A stretch of DNA of 51,556 bases from a virus (IMGVR_UViG_3300048778_000586:1-51556), one strand, 5' to 3'. Shown: positions 1,178-50,963, counted from the first letter of the stretch. Numbers and translations are program-made. The notes: generated by a model from the letters alone, not told the origin.

Positions 1178-1750
1178 ATGGTCATAAAACAAACACGCGC
1201 GTTGGGCGACACGGCTTTTGCCGATGGCGATTTGCAGCCGGTCACGGACCGCCGCGGTTCGCTGGCCGCTGATTCGGCTGATACCTCCGCCCTGGTCGGC
1301 GATAGTTCATTCTCGGAACTCGTCGGGCGGATGCGCCGCGAGTTCGATGATCTGTCCGTGCCGCTGTGCGAGGAAGTCCTTGACTGGCTCAAGGGTGAAG
1401 GGTTGCTCGCCATCGGCGCCCATGCACACCATTCGATGCGACCGGCAAAATGGAAGGTGGGTGTCCTCATGGTTTTGGAATACGTTTTCAAACACCCGGC
1501 CATGACGGACATCTTCGCCGCGCTCTATATCTGGGATGAACCGTTGCTGGACGATATCCTCGGACACCTGAACCCCGCCCAGTTCGCCGCCAGGATCGGG
1601 GTGACGCGCGAGGCGGTCAATAAAGCGGTCCTACGCGCGCAATTGTATTTCAAACTGCCGCCGCGAAGGGGTCAGAGGCATCCGCAGGCGCGAGCTAATA
1701 TGAAACAGGCGAGGATGAAACAGTTGAAACGGTTGAAAGTTGAGGGTTGA
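1178..1750 (+). CDS. HTH DNA-binding protein (sigma region-4-like), candidate late regulator
   Basis: C-terminal PAQFAARIGVTREAVNKAV helix-turn-helix and basic tail. Confidence 0.55.
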   Translation: MVIKQTRALGDTAFADGDLQPVTDRRGSLAADSADTSALVGDSSFSELVGRMRREFDDLSVPLCEEVLDWLKGEGLLAIGAHAHHSMRPAKWKVGVLMVLEYVFKHPAMTDIFAALYIWDEPLLDDILGHLNPAQFAARIGVTREAVNKAVLRAQLYFKLPPRRGQRHPQARANMKQARMKQLKRLKVEG

Positions 1751-1794
1751 AAGTTAAAAAAAAAGGCAATTAAAAAACAAAGAACACAAAGTTT

Positions 1795-2541
1795 ATGACA
1801 AAAAAAATCAAGAAATCAAATCATGGAACCGGACATCCCACATTGGTCGAATCCGGCGGAAGCCGGAATACGCGCAACCTTAAGGTTGCGGCTACAGTTG
1901 CTTTCACCGGCGCTCGCGCGGAGTTCCTGGCCGGCAATCCCAAGGCGAAGAAGCTCCAAAAGGCGCATCTCCACGAAATCACCACCCGCATCGGCCGCTA
2001 TCGCCATGATATCCTGAGCTGGGCCACCCATGGCGTCAAACTCGCCAATGAAGCGCGCGAGATCGGCCTGCTCATCGTATCATACCTCGACACTTTGCCA
2101 GGCAAACAGATGACGCTCGACCTCTGGATGCAGTTGCAAAACCTGTTCATTGACCAGTACGGCAACCGCATCACCCAGGAAACGCTCAAGTGGTTCGTCA
2201 AAATCGCCAAGGCCAACCCGGACCCGTTTGACAGCATCCTCGACGTGCTGCAATGGCGCCAGCCGCTATTGCTCGCCAGCGGCGATGAGACGTTCCAGTT
2301 GACCGGCGAACGCCCGCAACAAGTCTTGCATGCCCCCGCCAATCCCATGAGCTTGCTCAAGGATTATTTCAACCCTGACCTGGAGGCCATCGTGACCGAG
2401 CTGCGCGCCAATATAAATTATTGCCCGGATGGCGAGCATTTCCGGCCCGACCTGTGCGAAACGCTGCGCGTGGAAATGGAACCCAAACTCAAACGCTATG
2501 ATAGCGCCCGGCTGTGGCTCCGGGGGGAGTTGGGAATTTGA
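1795..2541 (+). CDS. hypothetical phage protein with an in-frame REP-like insert (RNLKVAAT)
   Basis: 248-aa ORF with an A-rich leader. Confidence 0.6.
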   Translation: MTKKIKKSNHGTGHPTLVESGGSRNTRNLKVAATVAFTGARAEFLAGNPKAKKLQKAHLHEITTRIGRYRHDILSWATHGVKLANEAREIGLLIVSYLDTLPGKQMTLDLWMQLQNLFIDQYGNRITQETLKWFVKIAKANPDPFDSILDVLQWRQPLLLASGDETFQLTGERPQQVLHAPANPMSLLKDYFNPDLEAIVTELRANINYCPDGEHFRPDLCETLRVEMEPKLKRYDSARLWLRGELGI

Positions 2542-2613
2542 AAATGGTTGAAGGTTGATCCCTGCGTCGCCGTGGGCTATGCAGGACAAGGGGTTGAAAG
2601 TTGAGGGTTAAAA

Positions 2614-2931
2614 ATGAAATTGAAACGGATACAGCTTAGGCGCACGCGCGGATGGCGGATGCCGGCTAATACGGTGAAGGTGGACCGCACCACGCCGTTC
2701 GGCAATCCGTTCAAGACGGGCGAGAAGTTTTTTGATTATGTCATCGGTTCCGTCCAGGTCGTCAGGAACAACCGCCACGCCGTCGCCCTTTTTCGACAGC
2801 ATCTGATTATGTTTCCCAATCTCCGCGCGCGGATCAAACGCGAGTTGCGCGGGAAAAATCTGGCGTGCTGGTGCGAACCCGGCGCACCATGCCATGCGGA
2901 TGTGCTGATGAAAGTTGCGAATCAAGAATGA
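2614..2931 (+). CDS. DUF4326-family phage protein
   Basis: Signature KRIQLRRTRGWRMP...VDR...FGNPF...ELRGKNLACWC...CHADVL. Confidence 0.8.
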   Translation: MKLKRIQLRRTRGWRMPANTVKVDRTTPFGNPFKTGEKFFDYVIGSVQVVRNNRHAVALFRQHLIMFPNLRARIKRELRGKNLACWCEPGAPCHADVLMKVANQE

Positions 2932-2973
2932 AGAAACTTTATCCGCAGATTGCGCGGATTAACGCAGATTATT

Positions 2974-4026
2974 GTGGCGAAACCTTCAACCCTCAACCTT
3001 CAACCTGCAACCCGCTTTTGCCGGAATGCCCAAGCGGTCGCCCGGGCGTGGGGTGTGCGCATCCTGAAACAGCGCCAGCGCCGCAAAGCTCAGCTCGAGG
3101 CCGTCCGCACCGCCATGGAGCACCCGGATTTCCCCAAGAAACAACGCCAGGGCTGGCCCGCCGCAGAAATCGTCCTGTGGGGAAAATGTTATGTGGAGTT
3201 GAATAAGAAAGGGAATGAGTTTGAAGTCAATACGGTATCTGCCCATGCTAAAACGCAACCTGAAGGTTGCGGCTACAATGGTGATTCACAGCAGTTTTCC
3301 CTGGAGGTTGATCCGAAGGAGGCGGCTGAGAATCGCAAACGGGCCATCTGGGTGCGGTTTCAAAAGGGCGAGCGCGTCTCGAACGAGGATAAACGGTTCG
3401 CCGGCATCCCGAGTTATGAGGCCGCCGAGGACGATGGACGCGATGAGATAGCCGGGCAGGAGGGCGTGGCCAATCATATCCGGCGCCATTACAATTATCC
3501 CTGCACGAAGATGGACATCAGCCGGTGGCTGCGCGGCCGGAACCTGCCGCCCAATTGCGCGGAGCATTTTCCGCAATCGTTTTTGTCCGGGCGCTGGCGT
3601 AAATCAATGGTGGATGCGTGGGCGAAAAAATACATGGTCAAGTGGTCTGGCACACCGGATTTGGTACAGATGGATTCCCGCAGCAAACTGGAAACGGTGA
3701 CTTTTGAGCGGGCAAATCTGGAATTCGAGCTTTTCAAGAAGGCGCATGATGGTCAATACATCCTGAAGACCGAGCATGAGAATGCAATGCGCAGCGCGGG
3801 CGCCATTGTTTGGGCGCGGTTATGCCGGTGCATCGAAACGGAACTCATCAAGGGGCTGGAGGAATTCCTAAAAATCCAGAAGCCAGAAGTCAGGAGCCAG
3901 AAGCCAGAAGATAAATGGCAGAAGACAGCGCAGTCCATTCTGGATGATGCGCGGGCGCGGCATCGTGCGGCGGTGGATGCCATGCAGAAGGAATTTGCGG
4001 GACAAATGGCGACAGTTGAGAGTTGA
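2974..4026 (+). CDS. putative terminase small subunit (Nu1-like); start uncertain
   Basis: HTH-like segments and coiled-coil ERANLEFELFKKAHDGQYILK; lies upstream of the gpA-type terminase. GTG 2974 chosen because the upstream sequence is repeat-derived. Confidence 0.5.
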   Translation: MAKPSTLNLQPATRFCRNAQAVARAWGVRILKQRQRRKAQLEAVRTAMEHPDFPKKQRQGWPAAEIVLWGKCYVELNKKGNEFEVNTVSAHAKTQPEGCGYNGDSQQFSLEVDPKEAAENRKRAIWVRFQKGERVSNEDKRFAGIPSYEAAEDDGRDEIAGQEGVANHIRRHYNYPCTKMDISRWLRGRNLPPNCAEHFPQSFLSGRWRKSMVDAWAKKYMVKWSGTPDLVQMDSRSKLETVTFERANLEFELFKKAHDGQYILKTEHENAMRSAGAIVWARLCRCIETELIKGLEEFLKIQKPEVRSQKPEDKWQKTAQSILDDARARHRAAVDAMQKEFAGQMATVES

Positions 4027-4454: not shown

Positions 4455-6527
4455 ATGACCAGCACTGAAATCAAAGCAAACTCAGGCCACCTCACCCCGA
4501 CCCTCTCCCCCAAGGGTGGAGAGGAGGACAAGTTGCAGAGGCCGTTTTTTGAGGCGTTCATGCCGCGATACCGCGGCACGGTCTGGGAAAATGCCCGGCG
4601 CTTCCGGCTCATTGGTAAAGCCTATGAATCCATGCCGCCCGAACAGAACGGCTATTTCAATATCGCCACCTGCCGCCATCTGACCGGTCCGCTAACTGCC
4701 TGGCAACATCCCGATATCCGAAAAATTCTCGTCCGCAAAGCCATCCAGTCGCAAGGGTCGCTCGTCATTGATCTGGTCATTCCCTACATCATCGAGCATG
4801 ACCCGCGCAATACCTTGCTGCTGTTCGAGACTGACCCCAAGGCGATGGATTATTGCAGCATCCGGCTCATGGACACGCTCAAACAGCATCCGGTCATCGG
4901 CAACATGATCCTGGACGTGCAAAAGGTTGATCGTAATAACGTGACCACGACGTTCATCAAGTTCCCCGCCATGACGCTCTTGGTGGGCGGCTTAAACGAC
5001 AGCAACACGGCGTCGCTGGCGTGGCCGAACGTGCTCATAAGCGAGGCGTGGTTCCACAAGGCCGACGGGTTGCTGTTCAAGGCGTTTGGACGCACGGCGC
5101 AGTTCGAGCATACCTGCAAGATTCTGGTTGAATCCCAGGCGGGAATGGAGGGAGAGGATTTCGCGCGCGAATGCGACCTGGCCGTGCGCGTGCCGCTGAC
5201 CTGGGCGTGCCCGCATTGCGGCGGTCGGCAGGAATGGGAGTTCTCACAAAAAAGGGCGGAAGAGTTCAAATGCAGAATGCAGAATGCAGAATGCAGAATG
5301 CAGAATGAGAAACCAAAACCCGGCACCTATGCGGGCATGATCATACCGCACTCGACCCGGATGGCGGATGGCGCGGAAATCGAGGTCAGCGCGGATGAAC
5401 GGGCACTCGGCGCCGAGTGGGAATGTTATTGGTGCGGAGCGCGGCTTGCCGACACGCCACCATTACGCCGGCAGTTGATGGACAGTTATCAGCAGATCAT
5501 CCCATCACCGGCGCCGCGCGCGGTTGTGTTCGACTGGCCTGAAGAGGCGAGCCTTGGTATATCCTTTGCCGAGAGCGTCCGGCATTTTCTCACCGCCGAT
5601 GCCGCGCAAAAGGCCGGTAACATCATCCCGAAACAGGATTGGTATATGCAACGGCGCGCACGGACATGGAACCCAGCCCTGACAAGGCCGCAGATTGATA
5701 TTGCGCCCGGCAGTTATGATCCGAACCAGATCGTCCCCGATGAGCATTCGCGTAACATGGCCGTGGATTGCCAGCAGGATCAGGTGGTCATGGACAAGAC
5801 AGGCAAATCCGTCACCGGCTGGTTCTGGTACATCGTCCGGGTGGTGGACAAGTTCGGCAATAGCAAACAACTGGCGCGCGGCTATGTAAAATCGTGGGAG
5901 GAATGGATCGCCGTCCAGAAAAAGTGGAAGGTGCCGAATGACCGTGTGGTGATTGATATAGGGCAATGGCCAGGGCAGATTACCCAGCGCGCGGCGGATG
6001 AACGCGAAACCGTGGCCGTCAACAAGATGACGATGCTCGGCTTTATGAAGGACCGAACGGTGACGTGGTATTTGCTGGCCGCGGAACTAATGCGCCGCCA
6101 GTTCAAACATCGGGACGGCCAGATACGGCCGTGGTCGCCGCCGCAACCCATCCCCGCCACAGTGTTCGACAATGACGGGCGCCGGCAGGTGATTCATCTC
6201 AAGAAAATACGGTGGGACAACATGACGTTCAGGCTACAAGTGGACGCCCTGCGCAGCGGCGCACCGGGTATGCCGAAGATGGAAGTGCTGGGCAGGGAAT
6301 TCCTGGACGCGCAGACACAGGCCATGGAGCGCGGCGACCTGACTTATGAGCGGCAGATGGACGCGCAGTATTACATCCCGGAGAAAAGACAGTTCAAAGA
6401 ATTGCGACCGAATGACCATTACATGGCGTGCGAGGCGATGCTGCTGGTGCGGCAGGCCATGGACGGCATGATGGGGCATTTGGCCATTGCAGAAGATAGT
6501 AGTCAGGAGTCAGTAGTCAGGAGTTAA
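4455..6527 (+). CDS. terminase large subunit, lambda gpA-like
   Basis: ATPase region (KILVRKAIQSQGS, VLISEAW, LVESQ), CPHCG and CYWC zinc motifs, nuclease motifs MAVDCQ, VVIDIG and NDHY; lies upstream of the portal. Confidence 0.85.
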   Translation: MTSTEIKANSGHLTPTLSPKGGEEDKLQRPFFEAFMPRYRGTVWENARRFRLIGKAYESMPPEQNGYFNIATCRHLTGPLTAWQHPDIRKILVRKAIQSQGSLVIDLVIPYIIEHDPRNTLLLFETDPKAMDYCSIRLMDTLKQHPVIGNMILDVQKVDRNNVTTTFIKFPAMTLLVGGLNDSNTASLAWPNVLISEAWFHKADGLLFKAFGRTAQFEHTCKILVESQAGMEGEDFARECDLAVRVPLTWACPHCGGRQEWEFSQKRAEEFKCRMQNAECRMQNEKPKPGTYAGMIIPHSTRMADGAEIEVSADERALGAEWECYWCGARLADTPPLRRQLMDSYQQIIPSPAPRAVVFDWPEEASLGISFAESVRHFLTADAAQKAGNIIPKQDWYMQRRARTWNPALTRPQIDIAPGSYDPNQIVPDEHSRNMAVDCQQDQVVMDKTGKSVTGWFWYIVRVVDKFGNSKQLARGYVKSWEEWIAVQKKWKVPNDRVVIDIGQWPGQITQRAADERETVAVNKMTMLGFMKDRTVTWYLLAAELMRRQFKHRDGQIRPWSPPQPIPATVFDNDGRRQVIHLKKIRWDNMTFRLQVDALRSGAPGMPKMEVLGREFLDAQTQAMERGDLTYERQMDAQYYIPEKRQFKELRPNDHYMACEAMLLVRQAMDGMMGHLAIAEDSSQESVVRS

Positions 6528-7769: not shown

Positions 7770-7773
7770 ATAA

Positions 7774-7880
7774 ATGGTTGAGAGTTGGAAAATGGTTGAG
7801 AGTTGGAAAATGGTTGAGAGTTGGAAAATGGTTGAGAGTTGGAAAATGGTTGAGAGTTGAAAGTTGAAGGTTGAAAGTTA
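7774..7880 (+). repeat. tandem repeat, 5 x 18 bp (ATGGTTGAGAGTTGGAAA), running into family A heptamers
   Basis: Units start at 7774, 7792, 7810, 7828, 7846. Confidence 0.95.
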
Positions 7881-7902
7881 AACACGAAGACACGAATAAT
7901 TT

Positions 7903-10878: not shown

Positions 10879-11379
10879 ATGAAAGATCACATTGCCAAAA
10901 CCATTGCCGACCTGAAATCCGAACGTGCCAAGCTGGACGAAATCATCGCCACGCTTGAACGGTATGGCGCCGCCACAAGTGATGCGCCGGAAGTAGCCGT
11001 TCCCGCCGAACGGCTCGGCGAGCCGTTCTTATCTAAAACAAGAAAATACACCCGCCGCGCGGTAAGGCCGATTTCTACAACAGCCACACGCAACCTGAAG
11101 GTTGCGGCTACAAAAGTTACGGGTATGGATTTGGACAAGCCGACCACGGTTGGCGGGGCAATGAAGTTGATCTGCAAGGCGTACGTCAAAAAATCCTTTA
11201 CGATGCAGGATGTGATCGCGGCACTCGAAGCGGACAAGGATTACAATAAATTCTATCAGGAATCAAGCGGTGTCTCGACGGTCTATGCGAATCTGGCTTA
11301 TTGGAGCAAGACCGGAAAATTGGAAAAGATCGGCGAAGGCGCGGATGCGACCTATAAGGTTTTGGATTTGGATTTTTAA
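10879..11379 (+). CDS. hypothetical protein (coiled-coil plus winged-helix-like C-terminus)
   Basis: IADLKSERAKLDEIIATLE N-terminus; in-frame family B insert. Confidence 0.6.
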   Translation: MKDHIAKTIADLKSERAKLDEIIATLERYGAATSDAPEVAVPAERLGEPFLSKTRKYTRRAVRPISTTATRNLKVAATKVTGMDLDKPTTVGGAMKLICKAYVKKSFTMQDVIAALEADKDYNKFYQESSGVSTVYANLAYWSKTGKLEKIGEGADATYKVLDLDF

Positions 11380-17425: not shown

Positions 17426-17580
17426 CGAAATGGTTGAGAGTTGAGGGTTGAATGTTGAGAGCCTGAATTTTCCCACCAGGTAGGTACGCATCGGCGATGC
17501 GTACGAATTCCCCACCAACTTTTCCCACCAAATCGCGCCGTTCAACCTTCAACTTTCAACTCTCAACCTTCAACCGTTTA

Positions 17581-17793: not shown

Positions 17794-17865
17794 TTAATAG
17801 TTGAATGTTGAATGTTGAATGTTGAGCGTTTTAGGTCTTTCAACCCTCAACCCCTCAACCCTCAT

Positions 17866-18693
17866 CTAATACTTCACCAGCCAGCTTGTCGCCGTGTCCC
17901 GACACACCCTCGGCTCCCTGATTTTCCCACCCGCCGTCAACCCGAACCCCTCCACCTTGATGATCGAACCCACCCGCACACGGTCGCATTTCCCACCGAG
18001 CAACGGCACCGACCCGCAATCACTGACGTGAATGTCAGGCCCTATTTTCCCACTCGGCGCGTAATCATGCAAAATCCCAATTTTTACCGATTGCGTCCCG
18101 CCGTTGAATCCCGTCACCACGCAATAAAACGTCTGCAACCGCTTGCAGGCCCACATTGGCGCGCCCCACGGCGCATCCCACGCCTTTGCCACCACCCCTT
18201 CGCCGCCGTCCGCCAGAACCGCCTCCAGGAATTCACCGCCATTTCCCATTTCCGCCAATATAATGGTAGGGCGCGATGTCCCTATCGCGCCGTCAGTCCC
18301 TCCAAAACACGCGCTCAACGCGCACAGTTGCGCCCAGCGCTCGCGCAACGGCCTCTCCCGCATGTCCACGCCACCCAGCGCCAATAAGTCAAAGGCGGCA
18401 TCGAAGCACGATTTCCCACCAGGTAGGGACGCATCGCCGATGCGGCCGAGCATTTTCAAGTCCCTTGGCGTAAAACTTCCCCCCGATTTCCAGCGCATCC
18501 GCTCAACCGCCAGCACCGCTGAAATTCCCACCACCGGCGCGAACTCACGCACCGCAAACTCGCCATCATACTTGCGCGTGAATTGGAAATTCCCACCACC
18601 GCGCCAGGCCAATCCCTCCGCCAGCGACACCATGATCTTCGGAGGCTTCTGGATTCTGACTTCTGGATTCTGACTTCTGGATTCAGTTTTCAT
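17866..18693 (-). CDS. minimal ATP-dependent DNA ligase
   Basis: Nucleotidyltransferase motifs I (RKYDGE), IIIa (AFDLL), IV (EGVVAK), V (WACKR) and an OB-fold ending GKIREPR; carries in-frame repeat inserts. Confidence 0.75.
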   Translation of the reverse strand: MKTESRSQNPEVRIQKPPKIMVSLAEGLAWRGGGNFQFTRKYDGEFAVREFAPVVGISAVLAVERMRWKSGGSFTPRDLKMLGRIGDASLPGGKSCFDAAFDLLALGGVDMRERPLRERWAQLCALSACFGGTDGAIGTSRPTIILAEMGNGGEFLEAVLADGGEGVVAKAWDAPWGAPMWACKRLQTFYCVVTGFNGGTQSVKIGILHDYAPSGKIGPDIHVSDCGSVPLLGGKCDRVRVGSIIKVEGFGLTAGGKIREPRVCRDTATSWLVKY

Positions 18694-26963: not shown

Positions 26964-27758
26964 GTGCATGAAATTTCCTTTTCCGATGCGGTATGTCCAA
27001 CGCCGGTCGTGGTTTTGAAACTTCCGCTCCGGCCTTATTCACTTGGACATGAGGCTCTTCTGTGGCGTTTGCATAATCCTCTCCTGACGCTTACCTGGTC
27101 GCAGTTCAACGCACTTTCGTTGCAGCAGCAAATTCATGCCGTGCTTGATGCGGTCTGGATTTGTGCGAACACATGGAAACAAAACCAGGGTGAACCGTTC
27201 AGGCGATTGAAACTTAAAATCTGGCGCTGGCGGCTTGAGGGCGATAATTTTCCGCTGGGGATCGCCGAGTTTAGGAATTATCTCATCGCCGGACGGAAAC
27301 TTCCCAATGGTCCCACTGAACACGCGCTCAACGTGCTTTATCCCAAAGACGAGGTTCGCGGGCGCGCGCCCGGGTCGGCATTGCTGGCGCAGTTTTATAG
27401 TTTTGCGTGTTCGCCGGCGATGGAGACACAGAGGGAGGAATTTGGAATCCACCTCTCCCCGTCCCTCTCCCCCAAAAATCGGCGGAGAGGGAGAATAAGC
27501 GTTTGGGACATGCCGTATTCAATGGTTGGGCACTTGTATTTCACGGCTATGGAGATGGAGGGGAACGCGCGCATCGAGAATGACCAGGAACACGAGGAAC
27601 AGGCGGAGTTGGACAGGATTGAGAGGGAAATTGCGGAGGAAAAGAAAACCAAACACGGCGCGAAAGGGACTTCGCGCCCTACCAATTTAGCGACGCAAAT
27701 ACCAGAAGAACTTTTGAAAGATGGCGCGAAAGGGACTTCGCGCCCTACCACTGAATAA
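26964..27758 (+). CDS. putative tail assembly chaperone
   Basis: VLKLPLRPYSLGH N-terminus; directly upstream of the tape measure; three in-frame repeat inserts. Confidence 0.55.
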   Translation: MHEISFSDAVCPTPVVVLKLPLRPYSLGHEALLWRLHNPLLTLTWSQFNALSLQQQIHAVLDAVWICANTWKQNQGEPFRRLKLKIWRWRLEGDNFPLGIAEFRNYLIAGRKLPNGPTEHALNVLYPKDEVRGRAPGSALLAQFYSFACSPAMETQREEFGIHLSPSLSPKNRRRGRISVWDMPYSMVGHLYFTAMEMEGNARIENDQEHEEQAELDRIEREIAEEKKTKHGAKGTSRPTNLATQIPEELLKDGAKGTSRPTTE

Positions 27759-34431: not shown

Positions 34432-34751
34432 ATAGTTGAAAGTTGAGGGTTGCAGGTTGAGGGTTAATAGAAGGAAACGGCCACCTCACCCCGGCCCTCT
34501 CCCCCATGGGTGGAGAGGGAGAAGTCAGCAGGGTGTTGAGGGTTGAAAGTTGAGGGATAAATAAGAAAAAAGGCCACCTCACCCCCGCCCTCTCCCCGCC
34601 GGGCGCGGAGAGGGAGAAAATTTTAACCACGGATGGACACGGATATACACGAAGCGGCGCGATAGGGACATCGCGCCCTACCTACCTTTGACTTTAGAGC
34701 GTTTCTGACCCATGCTTCGTCCCGCATTGCGGGACTACGCAGGGCAAGACT

Positions 34752-35363: not shown

Positions 35364-35373
35364 AATGGTTGAG

Positions 35374-35618
35374 AGTTGAAGGTTGAGGGTTGAGAGTTGA
35401 AGAAGGGAAAGGCCACCTCACCCCGGCCCTCTCCCCCAGAGGTGGAGAGGGAGTTGAAGGTTGAGGGTTGAGAGTTGAAGAAGGGAAAGGCCACCTCACC
35501 CCGGCCCTCTCCCCCAAAGGTGGAGAGGGAGTTGAAGGTTGAGGGTTGAGAGTTGAAGAAGGGAAAGTCCACCTCACCCCGGCCCTCTCCCCCAGAGGTG
35601 GAGAGGGAGTTGAAGGTT
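35374..35618 (+). repeat. 3 x 78-bp tandem composite of family A and family D
   Basis: G[GT]CCACCTCACCCC recurs at 35411, 35489, 35567. Confidence 0.95.
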
Positions 35619-35792
35619 GGTAAATGGTTGAATGTTGAATGTTGAAAGTTCGGCGCGATAGGGACATCGCGCCCTACCTTGAATGGTTGAAGGAAGAAAC
35701 TTAATCCGCAGATTACACAGATTAACGCAGATTTTGAATAAGGAAAGCAGACTCAGCCTAAAGGCTGAGGCTACAAGGATACACACGAATTT

Positions 35793-36668: not shown

Positions 36669-36732
36669 AATGGTTGAGAGTTGAAGGTTGAATGTTGAGA
36701 GATTTACCACAAAGACACGAAGACACAAAGAC

Positions 36733-38988
36733 ATGAGTCATTTTAACGCAGAAGGCGTAGAGAAGCGCAGATTAAAGAAACGCAGCCTAAAGGCTGCGAC
36801 TACAATTTCGGTTACTTTGTGCCTTTGTGTCTTGGTGGTTAATTCCGCTTTTGCCCAAAGCGGGCGCCAGATGTTGCACGGTCATGTGCCAAAGGCCATC
36901 GCGCGATTGCATCTGCAATCCGTCGGGCTGCTCACCAATACCGCGCGCCTGAACCTCGCCATCAGCCTGCCGTTGCGCAACCCGGCCGCCCTTGATGATT
37001 TGCTCCGCCAAATCCAAGACCCGACGAGCACGAATTATCATCGGTACCTGACCCCGGGGCAGTTCGCAGCGCAGTTCGGACCGTCGGAACAGGATTATCA
37101 GGCGGTCATCGCCTGGGCGCGCACAAATGGGTTTGCGGTGAACGCAAGGCACGGCAGCCGGCTTGTCGTGGACGTGAATGGCGCGGTACCGGACATCAAC
37201 AGAACGTTTGGAGTGACACTGCGGACGTATCAGCATCCGATCGAGCACAGGACGTTTTATGCGCCGGATACCGATCCGTCCGCGAACCTGCCGGTTTCCA
37301 TTTTGCACATCGGCGGGTTGGATAATTACTCAAGAATGCGGGCGAATTTAACAATTCAGCCGATTACGAATGGAATTACAACACCTCTCCCCAGCCCTCT
37401 CCCCGCGGGGCGCGGAGAGGGAGAAGACGGACGGCTTTCGGCTGGGACAGTAATGCGCAACCTCAAGGTTGCGGCTACAACGAATAATGCGATTCCGAAT
37501 GCAGGGTCGGGACCGGGCGGGACGTATCGCGGCACGGATTTCCGCGCGGCATACGCCCCGAATGTCACACTGACCGGGTTAGGCCAGAAGATTGGGCTGC
37601 TCGAGTATGACGGTTATTACGTTAATGACATCACAAATTACGAAGGTCAGGCCGGGTTGCCGGCCGTTACGTTGATCAACGTGGCCGTGAACGGCGGCGT
37701 GAGCAGTCCGGGCGTCAACAATATGGAGGTTGCACTGGACATCGAGATGGCGATTTCCATGGCGCCGGGCGCGTCACAAATCATCGTCTATGAAGCGCCC
37801 AATGGCAGCACGTCCTGGGAAACCATCCTCTCCCAAATGGCCGATGATGATCTAGCTGCACAATTGAGCTGTTCGTGGTTCGATATGTCCCTGGGCGCAC
37901 CAGACCTGTCGTCCGAGGCGATTTTCAAACAGATGGCCGCGCAGGGACAATCGTTCTTTTGTTCGTCCGGCGACAGCGATGCGTTTATCAATGGGATCCC
38001 GTTTCCCGAGGAAAGCACCAATGTCACTCAAGTCGGCGGCACGGCCTTGACGACCACCGGTGCCGGCGGAACGTATGTTTCGGAAACGGTCTGGAACGCC
38101 GGTGGCGGCGAGGGCAGCAGCGGCGGCACGAGCACTAATTTTTCCATCCCTATCTGGCAACGGACGATTTCCATGACCACCAATCATGGCTCGACTACGA
38201 TGCGGAACACGCCTGACGTGGCACTGACCGCGAGTAACATTTATGTCGTCTATAACAACGGCAGCAGCGGCAACGCCTCCGGGACGAGCGCGAGTGCGCC
38301 GTTGTGGGCGGGGTTCATGGCGTTGGTGAATGAACAGGCGGCCATTGGCGGGCATCCGGCCATTGGATTTGCCAACCCGGCCATCTACGCGATCTGCACC
38401 AACGGGAATTATAGCGCCGATTTCCATGACATCATCACCGGCAGCAATACCTGGAGTGCCAGCCTGACGAATTATCAGGCCGTGCCGGGTTACGATCTCT
38501 GCACGGGCTGGGGCACGCCCGCCGGCCAAAGCTTGATTGATGACCTGGCGGGGCCTCTGCTTGAATCGGTCAGCAGCGTCACCAACCCTAATTCGGCCAC
38601 TATCATCATTATTGTGCCGCCCACAGGCACCAATGGCGAGTGGATTGCCGTTCAGGGCAGCACTTATACATGGACGACCTCGCCGACCGGCGCGGGCCAG
38701 ATTCAAAGCACGAACAGCGCGGCACAGAGCGCCACGAACTTGTTTACCGCGCTGACCAATGATTTTCCGAGCAGTCTGCGGTTCAAGTTCAATGGCAGCA
38801 CGAATTTCACGATTTCAACTTATTTACGGGGCGTGTTGAGCGTCAGTAATTCTCCGGGCTGGATGCGCGTGGCCATCAATACAAATGTCGTGGCGGGCGG
38901 CAATCTGACTGTATCGAATTTTATGGCGCAGACGATCACGTTGCTGGATAATACCAACGGGCCGAATACGCGCACCAACTGGTGGTGA
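36733..38988 (+). CDS. sedolisin/kumamolisin (S53) peptidase with pro-domain and a C-terminal phage-shared domain
   Basis: Pro-kumamolisin region (DPTSTNYHRYLTPGQFAAQFGP), EVALDIE, SSGDS, GTSASAP, GYDLCTGWGTP. Confidence 0.9.
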   Translation: MSHFNAEGVEKRRLKKRSLKAATTISVTLCLCVLVVNSAFAQSGRQMLHGHVPKAIARLHLQSVGLLTNTARLNLAISLPLRNPAALDDLLRQIQDPTSTNYHRYLTPGQFAAQFGPSEQDYQAVIAWARTNGFAVNARHGSRLVVDVNGAVPDINRTFGVTLRTYQHPIEHRTFYAPDTDPSANLPVSILHIGGLDNYSRMRANLTIQPITNGITTPLPSPLPAGRGEGEDGRLSAGTVMRNLKVAATTNNAIPNAGSGPGGTYRGTDFRAAYAPNVTLTGLGQKIGLLEYDGYYVNDITNYEGQAGLPAVTLINVAVNGGVSSPGVNNMEVALDIEMAISMAPGASQIIVYEAPNGSTSWETILSQMADDDLAAQLSCSWFDMSLGAPDLSSEAIFKQMAAQGQSFFCSSGDSDAFINGIPFPEESTNVTQVGGTALTTTGAGGTYVSETVWNAGGGEGSSGGTSTNFSIPIWQRTISMTTNHGSTTMRNTPDVALTASNIYVVYNNGSSGNASGTSASAPLWAGFMALVNEQAAIGGHPAIGFANPAIYAICTNGNYSADFHDIITGSNTWSASLTNYQAVPGYDLCTGWGTPAGQSLIDDLAGPLLESVSSVTNPNSATIIIIVPPTGTNGEWIAVQGSTYTWTTSPTGAGQIQSTNSAAQSATNLFTALTNDFPSSLRFKFNGSTNFTISTYLRGVLSVSNSPGWMRVAINTNVVAGGNLTVSNFMAQTITLLDNTNGPNTRTNWW

Positions 38989-39060
38989 AAAAAATAGTTG
39001 AAGGTTGAAAGTTGAAGGTTGAAGGGAAAAACAACCACAAAGAAACTCAAGTCGAATTTT

Positions 39061-41013
39061 ATGAGATGGATTTTCAAATTACTTTTGATGGCGGTTGTGC
39101 TCTCAACTCTCAACTCTCAACTCTCAACTACTTGCCATGCCCAATTGTCTTATGTGGACACGACCACGCCGTCCGCCAATAACCCGACGAATTGGGGAAC
39201 CATCACCATCCCCGGCGTGGCGACCAATGCACCGTTTTCGACGGTCAATACGAGTGTCTTCGTCATCGGCACTCCGACTCCCACGGCGTTCAACATGATC
39301 AATGGGAATTTTTTGTGGATTTACGATTATCTGATGACAAATAGTTTTTTCAACGGGGGGTATGGGACATCCACAAATCTTGCCGGTGGCGCGCTCGATC
39401 AGGTCACGAACATCGCTGAAAATGTCAGCGGGAATGGCACAGACACCAACGCCGTCAGAATCATGTCCGGGAGCGCATTCAACCTGACTGCCACCAATCC
39501 GGTCACGCTCTACAACCCGACGCCGTATTACACCAGCACGAGCTTTAACCCTACGAATTTTCCGCCAGACACCAACGGCATTGTCTGGTGCGATGGAACG
39601 CTCATCACCAACGCCATCACCGGCACGAACATGGCTGGGCCGTATTATTTCGACTCCACATTGTGCGCGGGCGCGATGACGAATGGCAGTGATTACATGA
39701 TTGTGAGCTTGTTTCCGCCAGCGAACACAAATTCAGCCGGGCCGTTCAATGCGAACACGAATTATCCGATTTCTGTGTTGACGAACGCCAGCGGTTTCAC
39801 GGTTTTATCGGGTTACACGGGGACGAATTATCTGGATGGGTATTACCCGGACGCCGCTTTGGGGCCGGGTGTTTATACCAATGACAACTGGTTTGTGGTG
39901 TTCACGACCGGCATTTGCCCGAACCAGAACGGGCCATATTACATCGCCCCGGCGTATGGCGCGGGTGCGATGACGAACAGTTGCGGGGAGATTACTTATG
40001 TCTATTCGAGCACCCCATCCAGTAATCAGATTTACGGGGTCACTTCCATTGACGTGACGAATGCCCCGGCGCAGCACTATACAAATCTGGACGCGGCGAA
40101 TCTGATTTTTGCGGAAAATTATACGCATCCCGGCATCACAACTAATCTTCTTGTATTCGGGTCTTCTCAAGATGGAATTTATTTCGTTTCTCCTCCTTAT
40201 GATTGGTTTAACCAAGCAGGACAAAACATCAACGTAGCAAGTGGTTCTCCTACTTATTGGGATTTGTCGGTGGCTGGTGGTTACTTCTACGCTCCCAACC
40301 CACCAATCCCTCCGTCATCTTATACAATTTACCCTGGCGGAACCGCTCTGTTTAGAACAAATAATCCGACGTGCTGGTCTCTCTACCAATCAAACGCATG
40401 GCGGTTTTACATGGCCACGAATGTTGCGCTCGCGCCATTCCCGTTCGAGACGATTACCACGACCGGCCTCGTCAGCCAGATGTTTTATGTCACGAATGTG
40501 TCGGTGTTCCCGAACTCGAACACGGTCTATACCGCCAGTGACGGCAGTTCGGTGGTTTTCAATGAAGCTCCGGTTGGTTTTACAACCATTCTTGGCGTGA
40601 CTTGGAATCAGATTCCTGCGCCAACAAACATAATATACGTCGTTACACCTCCCATGTCGGCACCACCAACCCCACCAACGACGCCGACGCCATCGCCAAT
40701 AGGAGGGGGGAATCATTATGTCATGGCCCAAGTAAGCGGTGTTTGGAAGTATCTCCCTGAAGGTAATGAATATATTACCCAAGTTGGGAATATGAATTTG
40801 GACCAGGGCAGATTATCCATTCCTCCAAAATATCCCCTGTCATATTTGCTCATTGATAGTGGAGGAAATGCCTCTTTAATCATTAAAGGTAGAACCTCAG
40901 CTTACCTTTCGTGGTTAGATTGGAATCCACAGATTCCATCAGATGCGTTTTACCCTTATGTGAACTCTGCACCATCAATCAATACCGGAGTACGTGGTCT
41001 TTATTCTAATTAA
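39061..41013 (+). CDS. secreted T/N-rich tail-fibre-like protein
   Basis: Signal ...VVLSTLNSQLSTTCHAQ; internal repeat GPYY......GAMTN; Pro/Thr linker. Confidence 0.65.
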   Translation: MRWIFKLLLMAVVLSTLNSQLSTTCHAQLSYVDTTTPSANNPTNWGTITIPGVATNAPFSTVNTSVFVIGTPTPTAFNMINGNFLWIYDYLMTNSFFNGGYGTSTNLAGGALDQVTNIAENVSGNGTDTNAVRIMSGSAFNLTATNPVTLYNPTPYYTSTSFNPTNFPPDTNGIVWCDGTLITNAITGTNMAGPYYFDSTLCAGAMTNGSDYMIVSLFPPANTNSAGPFNANTNYPISVLTNASGFTVLSGYTGTNYLDGYYPDAALGPGVYTNDNWFVVFTTGICPNQNGPYYIAPAYGAGAMTNSCGEITYVYSSTPSSNQIYGVTSIDVTNAPAQHYTNLDAANLIFAENYTHPGITTNLLVFGSSQDGIYFVSPPYDWFNQAGQNINVASGSPTYWDLSVAGGYFYAPNPPIPPSSYTIYPGGTALFRTNNPTCWSLYQSNAWRFYMATNVALAPFPFETITTTGLVSQMFYVTNVSVFPNSNTVYTASDGSSVVFNEAPVGFTTILGVTWNQIPAPTNIIYVVTPPMSAPPTPPTTPTPSPIGGGNHYVMAQVSGVWKYLPEGNEYITQVGNMNLDQGRLSIPPKYPLSYLLIDSGGNASLIIKGRTSAYLSWLDWNPQIPSDAFYPYVNSAPSINTGVRGLYSN

Positions 41014-41017
41014 CGAC

Positions 41018-45117: not shown

Positions 45118-45134
45118 GAGGGAGATAAATTGAA

Positions 45135-45350
45135 ATGAACGAACTTAATAAATGCCGTTGCGGACAAACTCCTGTGGTGAACGAAAAACAGACTCCACTT
45201 GGCCTCGGTCAGCGTTTAACGCTATGGGAAATTGAGTGCAATGTCTGTGGCGTGAAGGTATGCGCCAGAGAGCGAGAGAAAGCAGTTGAGCTTTGGAACA
45301 TGGCTAACCATAACGAAAGGGTAAGGGCGGTGGGAATAGTTGAAGGTTGA
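45135..45350 (+). CDS. Lar-like zinc-ribbon protein
   Basis: ELNKCRCG...IECNVCG...AVELWN. Confidence 0.6.
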   Translation: MNELNKCRCGQTPVVNEKQTPLGLGQRLTLWEIECNVCGVKVCAREREKAVELWNMANHNERVRAVGIVEG

Positions 45351-45380
45351 AGGTTGAAGGTTGGGAAAAAGAAAAGCGAT

Positions 45381-45731
45381 ATGAGCGAAACTACTTTGCT
45401 TTACATTTTCAGCGCGATTGCAATTTGCATTGCCGCCGCTACTGGCCTTGCAATCAATATTGCACAACGCCTTACACGAATTGAGACTTGGATGGAAATT
45501 ATTGGAATGAAGACGGCGAAGATTCTGCATAGTGATGGGGATGTTCTTGGGATAGACGCTTATCTTGATAAATACTTGAAGCAGAGTCAGAAATTATCTT
45601 ACAAAGATTGGACTTCGCTCAAGATAGCCTGCGAGAAGGTGGAATCTAATCCAAAAGTTCACGAGGGTAAAAGGCTGATGGCAGGATTTGTTGCCGCAGT
45701 AGCAATCCACAACATGCAAAAGTTATTATGA
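45381..45731 (+). CDS. single-TM membrane protein (lysis-module position)
   Basis: N-terminal TM followed by QRLTRIETWME. Confidence 0.55.
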   Translation: MSETTLLYIFSAIAICIAAATGLAINIAQRLTRIETWMEIIGMKTAKILHSDGDVLGIDAYLDKYLKQSQKLSYKDWTSLKIACEKVESNPKVHEGKRLMAGFVAAVAIHNMQKLL

Positions 45732-46123
45732 CCAACGCAATTCCAGTCTTGGTTACGACGGACACGGTTGACGGCCTGACAAATTGGCTACTGTCTCTCG
45801 GCGCAGTGCCGACCACAATGTTTGCCGTTATCATCTTCGGTTACGTTCTACGCGCCATGCCAATCTTCCCGATGAAGTGGATGTTCTTCGCGTGTGCCAT
45901 CGCTGGCGCGGCAATCTTCCCATTTGTGGCTCACTATCACATCAGCGCGGAATCATGGGCTTACATTGGCAAGACGATATTCGCCGGGGCAGCAATTGGG
46001 ATGGGTGCATGGGCATCGCACGATCAGTTCTTGAACAAATTCGAGGACAAGATTCCGATTCTGAAAAATATCGTGGTGGGGATTGATGCAATTCGCAGTT
46101 CAACACCAACGAAACAAAACTGA
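45728..46123 (+). CDS. putative holin (about 3 TM)
   Basis: Three hydrophobic helices and a charged C-tail; follows the tail module. Confidence 0.55.
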   Translation: MTNAIPVLVTTDTVDGLTNWLLSLGAVPTTMFAVIIFGYVLRAMPIFPMKWMFFACAIAGAAIFPFVAHYHISAESWAYIGKTIFAGAAIGMGAWASHDQFLNKFEDKIPILKNIVVGIDAIRSSTPTKQN

Positions 46124-48129: not shown

Positions 48130-48573
48130 TTATTTTGGAAGGGACTGCCATGCACCGTTCTTCTGAAGTTCGTTGTTGACGGTGGCAACCGCGGCGTCAA
48201 CGGCGTCATCGTAGGATTTCCACGGATTGGCCCGCCCTTCTCCGACTCCCGCCGTGGCTCCCAGCCGTATCGCCGATTGTATGCAGCGCTGATCGGCAGC
48301 ATGAAGATCGTCCTTGGCCACCGCCAGGTCTTGCAGGCTGTGGACCGCCTCGCCGAATTTACCGACCAGCTCCTGATAACTGCCCACCACTTTTGTCCTT
48401 AACTCCGCATCCGCCACCGCATTGGATTCCAGCACGGAAATTTGAATCTTTTGATCGGCGATCAGTTTGTTTTTGAAACCTATAATATGCGCCTGCTGCC
48501 ACACGCAAAGACATGACAGACAGAGTGCGAGCAATACGCCAATCAGAACCAACAGACTAATTTTAGATTTCAT
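48130..48573 (-). CDS. membrane-anchored hypothetical protein (possible superinfection exclusion)
   Basis: N-terminal TM helix; has its own promoter; function is inference only. Confidence 0.55.
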   Translation of the reverse strand: MKSKISLLVLIGVLLALCLSCLCVWQQAHIIGFKNKLIADQKIQISVLESNAVADAELRTKVVGSYQELVGKFGEAVHSLQDLAVAKDDLHAADQRCIQSAIRLGATAGVGEGRANPWKSYDDAVDAAVATVNNELQKNGAWQSLPK

Positions 48574-49521: not shown

Positions 49522-50049
49522 ATGACGAATTCAAAATTCACCGGTCTTCGCCAGGCTTCTACCCGGCAAGGAATTCAGAATAGCGGCGCGAAAGGGATCC
49601 CGCGTCGCCAAGGCTATGCAGGACAAGCTGCGCGTCCTACCACGGATGGCGTGCGTCCCCACCAGACGGAGTTGTTTGAGCCGACCATTGCGCAGCAGTT
49701 TGAGGCGTGGAAGGCCACGCCCGGCGGCGCCCAGGTCATGCGCATCGCTTACGCCGTTGCCGCCCGCTACGGCCGCCGTTATATCGAACGCGGCCGGCGC
49801 GTGAGCGTGCGCCTCATCTGGGAGATGTTGCGCGATAATATCACGTTCATCCGCGCCCGGATGAAGGCCAAGGGCATCATGCTCGAGAAGCTGGACGGGT
49901 TCGCGTTGAACGATCATTTCCACGCGCATGTGGCACGGCATATCATGGGGCACCGACCGGAATGGCAGGGGATGTTTGAATTGCGCGAGCTGGGCGCGGC
50001 CAGAAATAAACGGAAGGTAACGATCATTAAAATTGACCAGCCGGTTTAA
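49522..50049 (+). CDS. phage hypothetical protein with a repeat-derived N-terminus
   Basis: RLIWE.LR...LND.F.A.VAR......PE..GMFELR; first ~40 aa derive from nested repeats. Confidence 0.6.
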   Translation: MTNSKFTGLRQASTRQGIQNSGAKGIPRRQGYAGQAARPTTDGVRPHQTELFEPTIAQQFEAWKATPGGAQVMRIAYAVAARYGRRYIERGRRVSVRLIWEMLRDNITFIRARMKAKGIMLEKLDGFALNDHFHAHVARHIMGHRPEWQGMFELRELGAARNKRKVTIIKIDQPV

Positions 50050-50112
50050 CCGCAGAGGCGCAGAGGCGCAGAAGAATAAGAAAACCAATAAGGAAAGCAG
50101 GAAATCAGGAAG

Positions 50113-50523
50113 ATGAAGGATAGAATTGTTATTTTGGGAATTATTGGGGTGCTTTGCGCCTTGACGGTTAATTCCTCGGCGATGGACCGGTGGGAGGCAT
50201 TGTCTCAAATCGAGTCCGGCGATTGCGATACTTGCATTGGCCCGTCGGGTGAAGTATCTCGATATCAGATTTTGCCCTGCGTCTGGCGGGAATATACGAA
50301 ACTGCCGTTGAGCGCGGCTACCAACCCATTCACCGCTCGGAATGTCGCGGAGACAATCATGGCGGCGCGCATTCGTTATTTTTATCAAATCGGCGCGCAA
50401 GGGACCTCGCGCCCTACCGATCAGGAATTGTATCTGCTCTGGCACCGGCCGGCGCGGGTGCTGCGTCCTAAACCCGCCGAACGCGAACGCGCGGAACGAT
50501 TTGAGAATTTGTGCAGGAAATGA
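50113..50523 (+). CDS. secreted lysozyme-like / transglycosylase protein
   Basis: Signal peptide; ALSQIESG...G..GEVSRYQI catalytic Glu-Ser motif. Confidence 0.7.
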   Translation: MKDRIVILGIIGVLCALTVNSSAMDRWEALSQIESGDCDTCIGPSGEVSRYQILPCVWREYTKLPLSAATNPFTARNVAETIMAARIRYFYQIGAQGTSRPTDQELYLLWHRPARVLRPKPAERERAERFENLCRK

Positions 50524-50579
50524 TGAAAGGCGCAATCTACGGCGCGACATAAATGTCGCGGCTACATGGATGAATATAA

Positions 50580-50822
50580 ATGAGCAGGACGTTTCATAAA
50601 GAACATGAGACTGTGGATCGTCAAACGCCGCGGCGCCGGCGGTTTTATTGTGGCGTTGCGCGCAAGATGATTTTTCCGTCGCATGACGCGGCCATTCAGG
50701 CCGTCGCCGGCTTTGAGCCTTCGGTGCGGACGGCCATGGAGTATAGGGCGTATCATTGCAAGTTTTGCGGCGGGTGGCATCTGACAAGCCAACCGTGGAA
50801 ACCGAAAATAGTTGAAGGTTGA
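50580..50822 (+). CDS. small zinc-binding protein
   Basis: RAYHCKFCGGWHLTS. Confidence 0.6.
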   Translation: MSRTFHKEHETVDRQTPRRRRFYCGVARKMIFPSHDAAIQAVAGFEPSVRTAMEYRAYHCKFCGGWHLTSQPWKPKIVEG

Positions 50823-50846
50823 AGGTTGAAGGTAAAAAACACGAAG

Positions 50847-50963
50847 ATGAAACTTTGTTTCCCAACTGAAATTTTGAAGCAGCACCTGGTCGTGCTCGGC
50901 AAGACCGACGCTGGCAATAAAACACTTTTACGCGAATTACACGAATTGCCGCTAATTATTTAA
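50847..50963 (+). pseudogene. N-terminal remnant of a HerA/DUF87-like P-loop ATPase
   Basis: PTEILKQHLVVLGKTDAGNK, a decayed H..vLGKTGAGKS motif, runs into a family F repeat. Confidence 0.5.

Follow-up and report, generated by a model that had tools for sequence, protein, structure and literature searches.

REP-like hairpins and heptamer arrays have long been known from bacterial chromosomes without having been explained. GTAG REPs have been described in the verrucomicrobium Opitutus terrae, and REPs lying inside genes have been reported as well (Di Nocera et al. 2013, PMC3733652). In the current model, as far as the accessible text of its source goes, REPINs are vertically inherited residents that duplicate very rarely and very slowly, RAYTs are absent from mobile agents and mobile elements are free of REPINs (bioRxiv 10.1101/2021.07.10.451892). 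Likewise, the consulted part of a study of Pseudomonas fluorescens Pf-5 gives its predicted phage regions as devoid of REPs (PMC7416659). Among heptamers, TAACTGA repeats are mostly forward, provide stops in three frames and have been proposed to be regulatory (MacGregor 2015, PMC4679880); the word phage has 0 occurrences in the available text of that article. The situation described here is unusual in that such repeats were thought to be confined to bacterial chromosomes, and two unrelated phages are saturated with several families of them.

The window, that is the whole stretch of 51,556 nucleotides (51.6 kb) that was analysed, is a whole temperate tailed phage, roughly 91% complete. Its source habitat is peat. 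The phage is marked as temperate by the following gene:

142..1110, + strand: tyrosine integrase (PF00589, 6.8e-26; phrog_1)

As to the ends of the record, neither end repeats nor att-like direct repeats nor tRNA came to light. Close relatives were not found in the 'phages' collection (9.9 kb, near mode; 1.4 kb, distant mode), and a scan of viral_contigs with the capsid peptide gave no match. The capsid matched 10 of 401 sampled genomes of the phylum considered below, all at 37% identity or less. An initial annotation of the window had seen none of the genes that neighbour similar repeats in bacteria, in agreement with the absence from the phage, at E<=1, of PF05635, PF01797, PF13366, PF04480 and PF01541.

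A regular-expression census over the gene list counted 91 small repeat elements in nine pattern classes, none being expected by chance: A (29 +, 4 -), B (14 +), C (9 +, 1 -), D (10 +), E (4 +), F (6 +), F2 (3 +, 1 -), F3 (2 +) and G (8 +). All the families named in the initial annotation were found where it had placed them, and the strand bias that it described amounts to 85 elements on the + strand against 6 on the - strand. The elements are of two kinds. The first comprises GTAG/CTAC-tagged REP-like hairpins (B, C and E) and the CCCTCTCC hairpin (D); the second comprises short-period arrays, with units of 7 nt in A and G and of 8-10 nt in F. Family B, GCGCAACCTNAAGGTTGCGGCTAC, has 14 copies, all + (17 pattern matches, 3 of which are palindromic echoes), family C, GGCGCGATAGGGACATCGCGCCCTACC, has 10 (9 +, 1 - at 18265) and family D, CCCTCTCCCC..GGAGAGG, has 10, all +, with 0 expected for each of the three. 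TRF returned 82 rows of short-period arrays, and the heptamer pattern NGTTGAR was found in 45 windows (38 +, 7 -) versus 0 in 100 shuffles.

The description of B and C as GTAG-type palindromes with compensatory stem substitutions was borne out, and E proved to be tagged likewise. In B, 4 of 7 stem pairs carry changes in both partners, with pairing in 98% of stem cells; in C, the figures are 3 of 8 pairs and 92%. Predicted folds reach -12.3 kcal/mol (z -2.95) for B and -15.4 kcal/mol (z -2.6) for C. TAC is invariant at columns 22-24 of B (15/15 rows), a CCCTACC tail is present in 10 of 11 rows of C, and the CTAC/TTAC tails adjoin the hairpins. No Rfam family matched the repeats (1 chance match, E 0.14). 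B, C and E thus resemble GTAG REPs and REPINs (Di Nocera et al. 2013; Bertels and Rainey) in being imperfect palindromes of 24-40 nt present in many copies, with CTAC conserved at one of the ends (read as GTAG on the opposite strand) and compensatory stem changes, and B occurs in inverted doublets in metagenome contigs. In contrast, B and C in the phage are singletons, nearly all in one orientation, with no inverted doublets; moreover the carrier is a phage, the density exceeds that of a sampled host and the phage has no RAYT.

The repeats are not an assembly artefact, a possibility raised at the outset, as far as independent Logan contigs (run X3) show: these match long stretches of the window with 0 to 4 differences, including the D+B insert inside a gene described below. 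The contigs are broken at repeats, as expected of true repeats, and many of their joints correspond to cross-mapping among repeat copies. No polymorphism for presence or absence of elements was clearly visible in the contigs of this run.

Representative junctions are the following:

1731..1751, + strand: family A array giving the stop codon of ORF 1178-1750
7772..7882, + strand: perfect 18-nt tandem of A units (x4.9) plus a following A array, immediately downstream of the stop codon at 7769
34433..34750, + strand: chained junction A-D-A-D-(CACGGAT array)-C-E
35367..35790, + strand: chained junction with a 78-nt A-D module repeated x3.2 as assembled (98% identical), then A, C, F and B

At least one element occupies 32 of the 51 co-directional junctions, which supports the clustering at gene junctions noticed initially, but many other copies lie inside ORFs instead; the chain at 34433-34750 was confirmed unit by unit. 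There are 34 spacers of at least 28 nt, and 28 of them hold elements. Among the 54 + genes, 18 have their stop inside a sense heptamer array or at most 12 nt before it, the array beginning 2-8 nt past the stop or containing it. The order is recurrent, A lying beside the stop and F-type arrays beside the next start. Each unit of the A arrays carries a TGA and the frame shifts by one per unit, so that these forward 7-nt tandems give stops in all three frames. TAACTGA repeats and cyanobacterial STRR are alike in their 7-nt units, short intergenic tandems, mostly forward orientation and three-frame stops, in overlapping upstream ORF ends and in tolerating reverse copies within ORFs (PMC4679880, available text). 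They differ in the unit (NGTTGAR and others in the phage), in the phylum, in the carrier and in placement: phage arrays mostly adjoin the stop upstream of them, TAACTGA sets mostly the start downstream.

This placement bears on a reading that we hold possible without finding it probable, namely that the elements are kept, and possibly recruited, as RNA signals punctuating the long phage operons and mimicking host signals. The sense heptamer arrays would set TGA, TAA or TAG in three frames after each gene, and the elements would serve as processing, stability or protein-binding sites for host factors such as four-helix-bundle proteins or RNases. The stops lying within or 2-8 nt before an array in 18 of 54 + genes, the A-then-F grammar and the published parallel of the TAACTGA heptamers, proposed to be regulatory (PMC4679880), all argue for it. 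However, six spacers of at least 28 nt are empty, the hairpins are not intrinsic terminators and no Rfam family matches. In addition, the changes in the B stem are all from Watson-Crick to Watson-Crick pairs with 0 G-U intermediates, which suits a need for pairing on either strand of DNA more than within a single RNA. Intrinsic (Rho-independent) termination was itself rejected: terminator-like sites in 26000-45999 number 25 versus 23.6 +/- 6 in shuffles, and the 10-nt sense tails, with a mean T count of 2.7 for B and 3.2 for C, are not U-rich.

At least 14 elements lie inside ORFs, in frame, where a 3'-end signal would be senseless. Elements within genes include:

11088..11111, + strand: B hairpin in frame (TRNLKVAAT) inside ORF 10879-11379
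18265..18291, - strand: the sole minus-strand C, in frame (GAIGTSRPT), in the minus-strand ligase-like ORF 17866-18726
18646..18684, - strand: heptamer array of G type, TCAGAAT/CCAGAAG when read on the minus strand, at the 5' end of the same minus-strand ORF
27450..27749, + strand: in-frame D (27450-27495) and C (two copies, 27657 and 27723) within ORF 26964-27758
36704..36840, + strand: inverted 8-mer arms (CACAAAGA x3, CTTTGTG x3) around a B hairpin, in the part of the S53 peptidase gene coding for the signal peptide (duplex z -5.6)
37382..37478, + strand: in-frame D and B separating the pro-domain of the S53 peptidase 36688-38988 from its catalytic domain
50392..50418, + strand: C copy in frame (GAQGTSRPT) in ORF 50113-50523

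The five intragenic C copies identified all translate as GA[KQI]GTSRPT, and the three families found inside genes (B, C and D) are each translated with a preferred reading frame. In the S53 peptidase, D+B forms an insert of 36 amino acids which 11 of 11 homologues do not have; for at least this one gene the sequence is thereby shown to have been inserted and not to have arisen de novo, the other intragenic copies having been checked for an open frame alone. Rickettsia palindromic elements (RPEs) are a close parallel, being palindromic repeats translated in frame in working genes, at linker or loop positions (PMC3733652), as the peptidase insert is in frame here and lacking in the homologues. 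Unlike RPEs as described in that source, the phage repeats comprise three such families in one genome and also fill the intergenic junctions.

Seven pairs of inverted arms were found in the phage, with duplex z from -3.8 to -6.6, and three of them were folded whole. Besides the pair in the peptidase gene, they include:

2585..3015, + strand: inverted A arms (2585-2615, 2980-3015) around the DUF4326 gene 2614-2931 and an F array
17428..17578, + strand: two inverted A arrays (A+ 17432-17459, A- 17541-17575) that enclose a GTAC-type hairpin; folding at -57.4 kcal/mol (z -6.3)
17796..17866, + strand: inverted A pair (A+ 17799-17826, A- 17840-17864) at a convergent junction (fold z -3.95)
38992..39132, + strand: two inverted A arrays (A+ 38996-39023, A- 39102-39129) lying after a stop codon and ahead of the following start; folding at -44.1 kcal/mol (z -5.2)

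These pairs modify another early claim, according to which the repeats flip strand in or beside minus-strand genes. It holds for C at 18265 and G at 18646, both minus-oriented within a minus-strand gene, but each of the minus A arrays at 17541 and 17840 forms the right arm of an inverted pair whose A(+) partner lies 75 or 9 nt upstream, respectively, and both were rejected as flips tracking minus-strand genes. Two arm pairs enclose a gene. In the first (duplex -28.6 kcal/mol, z -4.2) the cargo is the DUF4326 gene (PF14216), a family not found in 5 candidate host genomes. The second pair, with arms at 41670 and 42716, encloses an unnamed ORF of 240 aa, which was dropped as evidence of cassette cargo: it has no family match above the cut-off, and a protein-atlas look-up gave only weak phage-protein leads, all scoring under 0.9. 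Most phage arrays are solo sense arms.

The same families occur in bacteria. The exact C pattern was found in 52 stretches of genome_contigs, nearly all labelled as Verrucomicrobiota MAGs, and the A, D, F, C and E parts of a 321-nt phage chain were matched in 5 of 5 Verrucomicrobiota MAGs. Pieces of C, F and A were matched in 85 of 201 sampled genomes of one Verrucomicrobiota order, and B was found in 18 of 301 genomes of that order, with up to 81 copies per genome. B was also present in more than 119 metagenome stretches, mostly as the right half of an inverted doublet, and a C doublet with a variant partner was seen in G001. The sharing of the families with bacterial genomes, anticipated by the initial annotation, predicts the phylum and order of the host, and Verrucomicrobiota are likely the hosts of the phage. 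Genomes G001, G003, G004 and G005 have C and lack B, while G556 and G504 have B, D and F and gave no C match. None of the sampled genomes holds all families, and the density comparison of 91 elements in 51.6 kb of phage versus 17 in the first 400 kb of G001 contig 4 may involve a genome other than the actual host's. With this reservation, a density far above the candidate host's also speaks for RNA signals.

PF05635 genes (23S rRNA IVS protein / Avd-like) are present in 4 of the 5 candidate host genomes. The association of such repeats with four-helix-bundle genes, mentioned at first for bacteria in general, holds there: inverted period-7 arms flank PF05635 at 9 of 9 loci inspected and, where both automatic criteria are required, at 7 of 14. 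In the bacteria the short-period arrays also make up the inverted arms of hairpin elements. The GTTGAGG unit of the phage is used in the arms of two of these loci (L098 and L101), which links the phage junction repeats, with their seven arm pairs, to heptamer-armed four-helix-bundle cassettes. The phage differs in having neither a PF05635 nor a PF13366 gene and in its arrays being mostly solo sense arms. We found no published description of such cassettes in a limited literature search; ORF-bearing 23S rRNA intervening sequences were compared together with them. Y1 transposases (PF01797) are also present in 4 of the 5 candidate genomes. Six copies of RAYT-like genes inspected in these candidate genomes are flanked by other, GTCCCGCAAGGGAC-like hairpins.

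The orientation of the repeats recurs in a second phage. L110 is a phage fragment with an SU10-type capsid protein, a T4-type terminase and DnaB; the repeats (A2, B4, C3, D3) are the sole sequence it shares with the window, the two phages being unrelated, and 12 of 12 lie on the gene strand. In rough tests the candidate hosts lack such polarity: C copies at tandem junctions are 5 sense and 11 antisense, C copies divide into 22 and 24 relative to GC skew (a weak proxy), and arrays are 20 sense and 24 antisense. Flank contexts of B in metagenome contigs and 8 host loci were mostly ambiguous by a crude flank test. A route of colonisation coupled to transcription, as first suggested, or to the replication strand predicts polarity in hosts too, and none was seen; these unpolarised copies speak against a simple transcription-coupled insertion route. 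The polarity would rather originate in the phage itself. Being shared by the unrelated L110 and missing in hosts, it resembles a filter acting in phages, a point in favour of RNA signals.

It seems quite improbable that the polarity has a mechanical cause, with single-stranded copies placed in only one strand of the phage by an IS200/IS605-like (RAYT-type) enzyme or else through a homing-type process. The target would be the lagging-strand template or the displaced strand in phage or prophage replication, which would coincidentally be the coding one. For IS608 and ISDra2, insertion that is strand-specific and coupled to replication is established, the CTAC/TTAC tails lie beside the hairpins, and orientation is uniform per phage across families (85 to 6 in the window, 12/12 in L110, and 2/2 in L109, an AT-rich phage fragment). 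However, host C copies do not track local GC skew (22 vs 24, by the weak proxy above), B at 14375 is + despite lying in a stretch of negative skew, and C 18265 and G 18646, flipped in a minus-strand gene, would call for one more inversion or for a module gained separately. The duplication rates published for REPINs are also extremely low (bioRxiv 10.1101/2021.07.10.451892).

On balance we lean towards colonisation of phages, by insertion in trans, by repeats of a host lineage, one Verrucomicrobiota order, followed by enrichment there. Since the phage lacks any candidate enzyme, insertion must act in trans, and host enzymes would be what moves the repeats. Elements would survive at the least damaging places, either the handful of bases that separate stop from start codons or flexible protein loops read in one tolerated frame. 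In the end phages carry them far more densely than the sampled candidate hosts and almost all on the coding strand. The polarity might come from selection on long sense transcripts and translated frames, or from a strand asymmetry of phage replication exposing one strand as a single-stranded target. Several observations count against colonisation. Enrichment and uniform polarity in two phages fit a selected function at least as well, and no enzyme is tied to B, C or D, the host RAYT-like genes having other hairpins at their flanks. Both B copies of L109 are antisense to genes, and intergenic GTTGAR arrays of other IMG/VR contigs show no sense bias (13 with both flanks antisense, 5 with both sense). 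These other arrays, 37 of 89 of which are spanned by an antisense ORF, are a mixed set and were dropped as a clean replicate.

A bolder extension of colonisation appears rather unlikely as a whole: phage genomes would be preferred substrates, hence vehicles, for the repeat-spreading machinery of these Verrucomicrobiota. Copies made into single-stranded phage replication intermediates would reach many times the chromosomal density and be carried by the phage from one species of the order to another. Some would be exapted, be it as pads of stops in three frames, as linkers in proteins or as the core of a signal peptide. If so, REP/REPIN repeats would no longer be strictly vertical chromosomal passengers, and repeat content would be a host-prediction signal for uncultured phages. 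The phage is in any case a natural system that requires insertion in trans and in which fast-evolving phage genes can serve to date it, and a test bed for mechanism versus selection as the cause of orientation. In practice, the repeats alone pointed to one Verrucomicrobiota order for a phage without relatives in the databases searched.

The record is a single contig of 51,556 bp with no N, entirely covered by the window, classified as linear in IMG/VR with a CheckV completeness of 91%. The following genes were identified:

142-1110: tyrosine integrase
4455-6527: large terminase, gpA-type
8149-10818: lambda-type portal fused to a histidine-phosphatase domain
11805-14360: long capsid protein

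The combination of integrase, terminase, portal and capsid genes indicates a temperate tailed phage. The portal carries its His_Phos_1 domain at the C-terminus (residues 659-824, E 6.8e-37). No tRNA genes, terminal repeats or att-like repeats were found in the window. Neither the phage collection nor a scan of IMG/VR with a capsid peptide yielded a relative. Twenty public runs contain this phage or DNA nearly identical to it, and in 14 of these at least half of the sampled words were recovered; the runs are mostly peat metagenomes and come from 16 studies. A codon-usage scan of the window placed nearly all genes on the plus strand, limited minus-strand coding to 17866-18726, 19302-20048, ~20185-20803 and 48130-48573, and identified the long minus ORF at 49531-50925 as spurious.

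The repeats comprise heptamer arrays (families A and G), 8-10-nt arrays (F), GTAG/CTAC-tagged hairpins (B, C and E) and another hairpin (D). All the families named from the sequence are present, and the shuffle counts indicate that none is expected by chance.

Table. Repeat families counted by pattern in the window
Family; pattern; occurrences; count in 100 shuffles
A; three-unit NGTTGAR pattern; 45 windows (38 plus, 7 minus); 0
B; GCGCAACCTNAAGGTTGCGGCTAC; 14 copies, all plus; 0
C; GGCGCGATAGGGACATCGCGCCCTACC; 9 plus, 1 minus; 0
D; CCCTCTCCCC..GGAGAGG; 10 copies, all plus; 0

A regex census over the gene list yielded 91 elements, 85 on the plus strand and 6 on the minus strand. The initial annotation had placed them at most gene junctions. 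Elements do occupy 32 of the 51 co-directional junctions, and 28 of the 34 spacers of at least 28 nt counted from the census table; at least 14, however, lie well inside ORFs. Eighteen of the 54 plus-strand genes end inside a sense heptamer array or at most 12 nt before one, and several genes take their stop codon from the array. With TGA inside a unit of 7 nt, three units give a stop in each frame. The compensatory stem changes described earlier were also recovered, pairing being kept through double changes in 4 of 7 B pairs and 3 of 8 C pairs. Two arrangements have the look of recent local amplification: a perfect 18-nt tandem (x4.9) of a repeat module at 7772-7859, and a 78-nt A-D module (x3.2, 98% identity) at 35373-35619.

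Assembly artefact was considered as a source of the repeats. Logan contigs of a public sequencing run that is not flagged among the record's possible sources match 26904-29823, 30943-34471, 36621-37765 and other stretches with 0 to 4 differences. These contigs break at repeats; their agreement with the window argues against an artefact, the copy numbers within the longest arrays not being confirmable from them.

The intragenic elements, at least 14 in number, are in frame with their ORFs. In four ORFs family B is read as (T/M/Q)RNLKVAAT, in one more as GRNLKFAVT and in another two as TQP(E/Q)GCGY; every C copy in an ORF (5 copies) gives GA[K/Q/I]GTSRPT, and D gives a Pro/Ser/Gly-rich stretch. 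In an S53 (sedolisin-type) peptidase gene at 36688-38988, D and B together encode 36 residues between the pro-domain and the catalytic domain, a segment that none of the 11 aligned homologues (53-63% identical) has. In the signal peptide of the same protein, the hydrophobic core TLCLCVLVV is encoded by an antisense 8-mer array (CTTTGTG x3, within 36704-36840), which pairs with CACAAAGA x3 located 75 nt upstream. Repeat DNA has apparently been exapted here as a signal peptide. Within the large terminase gene, the heptamer AATGCAG (x6.3, 5269-5311) is in frame and encodes CRMQNAE twice.

The families were then sought in bacteria. When one genome of each species was scanned for exact C matches, 52 stretches were obtained, almost all of them in Verrucomicrobiota-type MAGs (titled Verrucomicrobiota, Verrucomicrobiae, Chthoniobacter, Terrimicrobiaceae or Kiritimatiellae). 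The A, D, F, C and E segments of the 321-nt chain at 34430-34750 match separately in 5 of 5 such genomes, and C, F or A pieces of 35600-35790 match 85 of 201 sampled genomes from the order of G001, a Verrucomicrobiota MAG taken as a candidate host. Family B is absent from the five candidate genomes checked; it occurs in 18 of 301 sampled genomes of that order, at up to 81 copies per genome with the strands about equal. It was also found in more than 119 metagenome stretches, usually as the right-hand member of two inverted copies, GTAGCCGCAGGC...GCCTGCG - spacer - CGCAACCT.AAGGTTGCGGCTAC; REPINs are built in this way. As no sampled genome has all the families, the host is predicted only to the order of G001. 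No Rfam family matches. In the candidate genomes the F-type 8-10-nt arrays form inverted pairs around 20-150 nt. A G001 locus of this Verrucomicrobiae MAG (contig 4, 422000-436000) clusters 15 C-type hairpins in ~6 kb, many of them head to head with the variant GGCTCGTTGGGGACAACGAGCCCTACC.

The initial annotation had stated that similar repeats flank four-helix-bundle genes in bacteria, and the candidate hosts bear this out. G001, G004, G005 and G002 each carry 6 to 11 genes of PF05635 (23S-rRNA-IVS / four-helix-bundle), the family to which Avd of diversity-generating retroelements presumably belongs. These genes lie between inverted arrays in 9 of 9 loci inspected and in 7 of 14 by both automatic criteria, each copy with its own unit. 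Two such loci (L098 and L101) use the GTTGAGG/GTTGAAT unit of the phage, including the AAATGGTTGAG leader of its junctions. Our literature search found no paper describing heptamer-armed four-helix-bundle cassettes. RAYT-like Y1 transposases occur in 4 of the 5 candidate genomes; the six genes inspected are flanked by GTCCCGCAAGGGAC-type hairpins, which resemble the inner stem of family E most closely and differ from both B and C. As anticipated from the sequence, candidate cognate genes are absent from the window: PF05635, PF01797, PF13366, PF04480 and PF01541 gave no match in the phage at E<=1. The phage repeats are host-type elements, inserted in at least one gene, and none of these candidate cognate genes accompanies them in the phage. 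The cassettes at L094 and L101, from different MAGs, are both immediately preceded by a tRNA gene and followed by a homologous gene; at this same site their arm heptamers differ (AGTCGAG versus GTTGAGG). In the phage, a DUF4326 gene (2614-2931) sits within inverted A arms (2585-3015), the design that flanks the four-helix-bundle genes; DUF4326 was not found in the 5 candidate host genomes.

The strong orientation bias in the phage is confounded because almost all genes lie on one strand. Four strand flips in or beside minus-strand genes had been put forward. The C copy at 18265 and the G array at 18646 hold, both lying inside a minus-strand ligase-like ORF where C is in its usual frame; the two A arrays are instead hairpin arms. 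Each minus-oriented heptamer array has a plus-oriented pairing partner upstream, giving seven pairs with duplex z of -3.8 to -6.6 (-3.95, -5.2 and -6.3 for the three folded whole). An inverted pair reads its G-rich arm first on either strand and therefore carries no polarity information.

A second phage fragment offers a comparison. L110 covers 12.8 kb of a 19.7-kb IMG/VR contig and encodes an SU10-type capsid protein, a T4-type terminase, DnaB and a Pol-beta-like protein, with every one of these genes on the minus strand; it has only repeats in common with the window. Its elements (two A, four B, three C and three D) are all 12 on the minus strand, that is, sense. In L109, an AT-rich phage fragment, two B copies are antisense to its genes, and no sense bias is seen among the GTTGAR arrays of other IMG/VR contigs. 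With one script, the period-7-10 arrays of the phage were 26 sense and 5 antisense (3 of the 5 being T-rich, with orientation misread by the purine rule) versus 20 and 24, on crude gene calls, in 400 kb of G001. For C in candidate hosts, co-directional junctions gave 5 sense and 11 antisense copies, and orientation relative to local GC skew 22 against 24, both from small numbers and crude calls.

A transcription- or ssDNA-coupled insertion route, proposed initially, is not favoured by these unpolarised host copies: if insertion followed transcription or the replication strand, polarity would be expected in the hosts as well. The data therefore lean towards a cause acting in the phage. Polarity could then reflect selection, acting on the long sense transcripts and on the frames that are translated, or else strand asymmetry of phage replication. 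Open-frame arithmetic was rejected as the cause of the bias, since B and C are open in both orientations, yet all five C copies in ORFs share the sense frame. Intrinsic termination by the hairpins was ruled out in either direction by terminator-site and tail checks.

The 91 phage elements in 51.6 kb compare with 17 of the same pattern classes in the first 400 kb of G001 contig 4, a genome that also has local C clusters. Similarly, B has 14 copies in the phage against 81 in the 3.9 Mb of the richest sampled genome. Phages are thus enriched, not merely sprinkled, unless the true host is far richer. This contrasts with two published accounts. In one, REPs are missing from the predicted phage regions of Pseudomonas fluorescens Pf-5 (PMC7416659); in the other, horizontally mobile agents are described as lacking RAYTs, and REPINs as duplicating extremely rarely (bioRxiv 10.1101/2021.07.10.451892). 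The kinds of component are already known, namely GTAG REPs, heptamer direct repeats and RPE-like in-frame insertions. As far as our searches reach, the combination is new: several families saturating two unrelated phages of one host order, polarised and partly translated.

Some regions of the window stand apart. The stretch at 14.4-17.4 kb is almost devoid of repeat elements, and GC skew is negative at 12000-20000 despite the plus-strand genes at 12-17.4 kb. A 97-nt tandem repeat (x1.8, identical) lies at 20893-21068, with a third copy (92%) at 20088-20166; it adjoins ~1 kb of non-coding DNA at the switch from minus-strand to plus-strand genes, and may mark an origin or immunity region.
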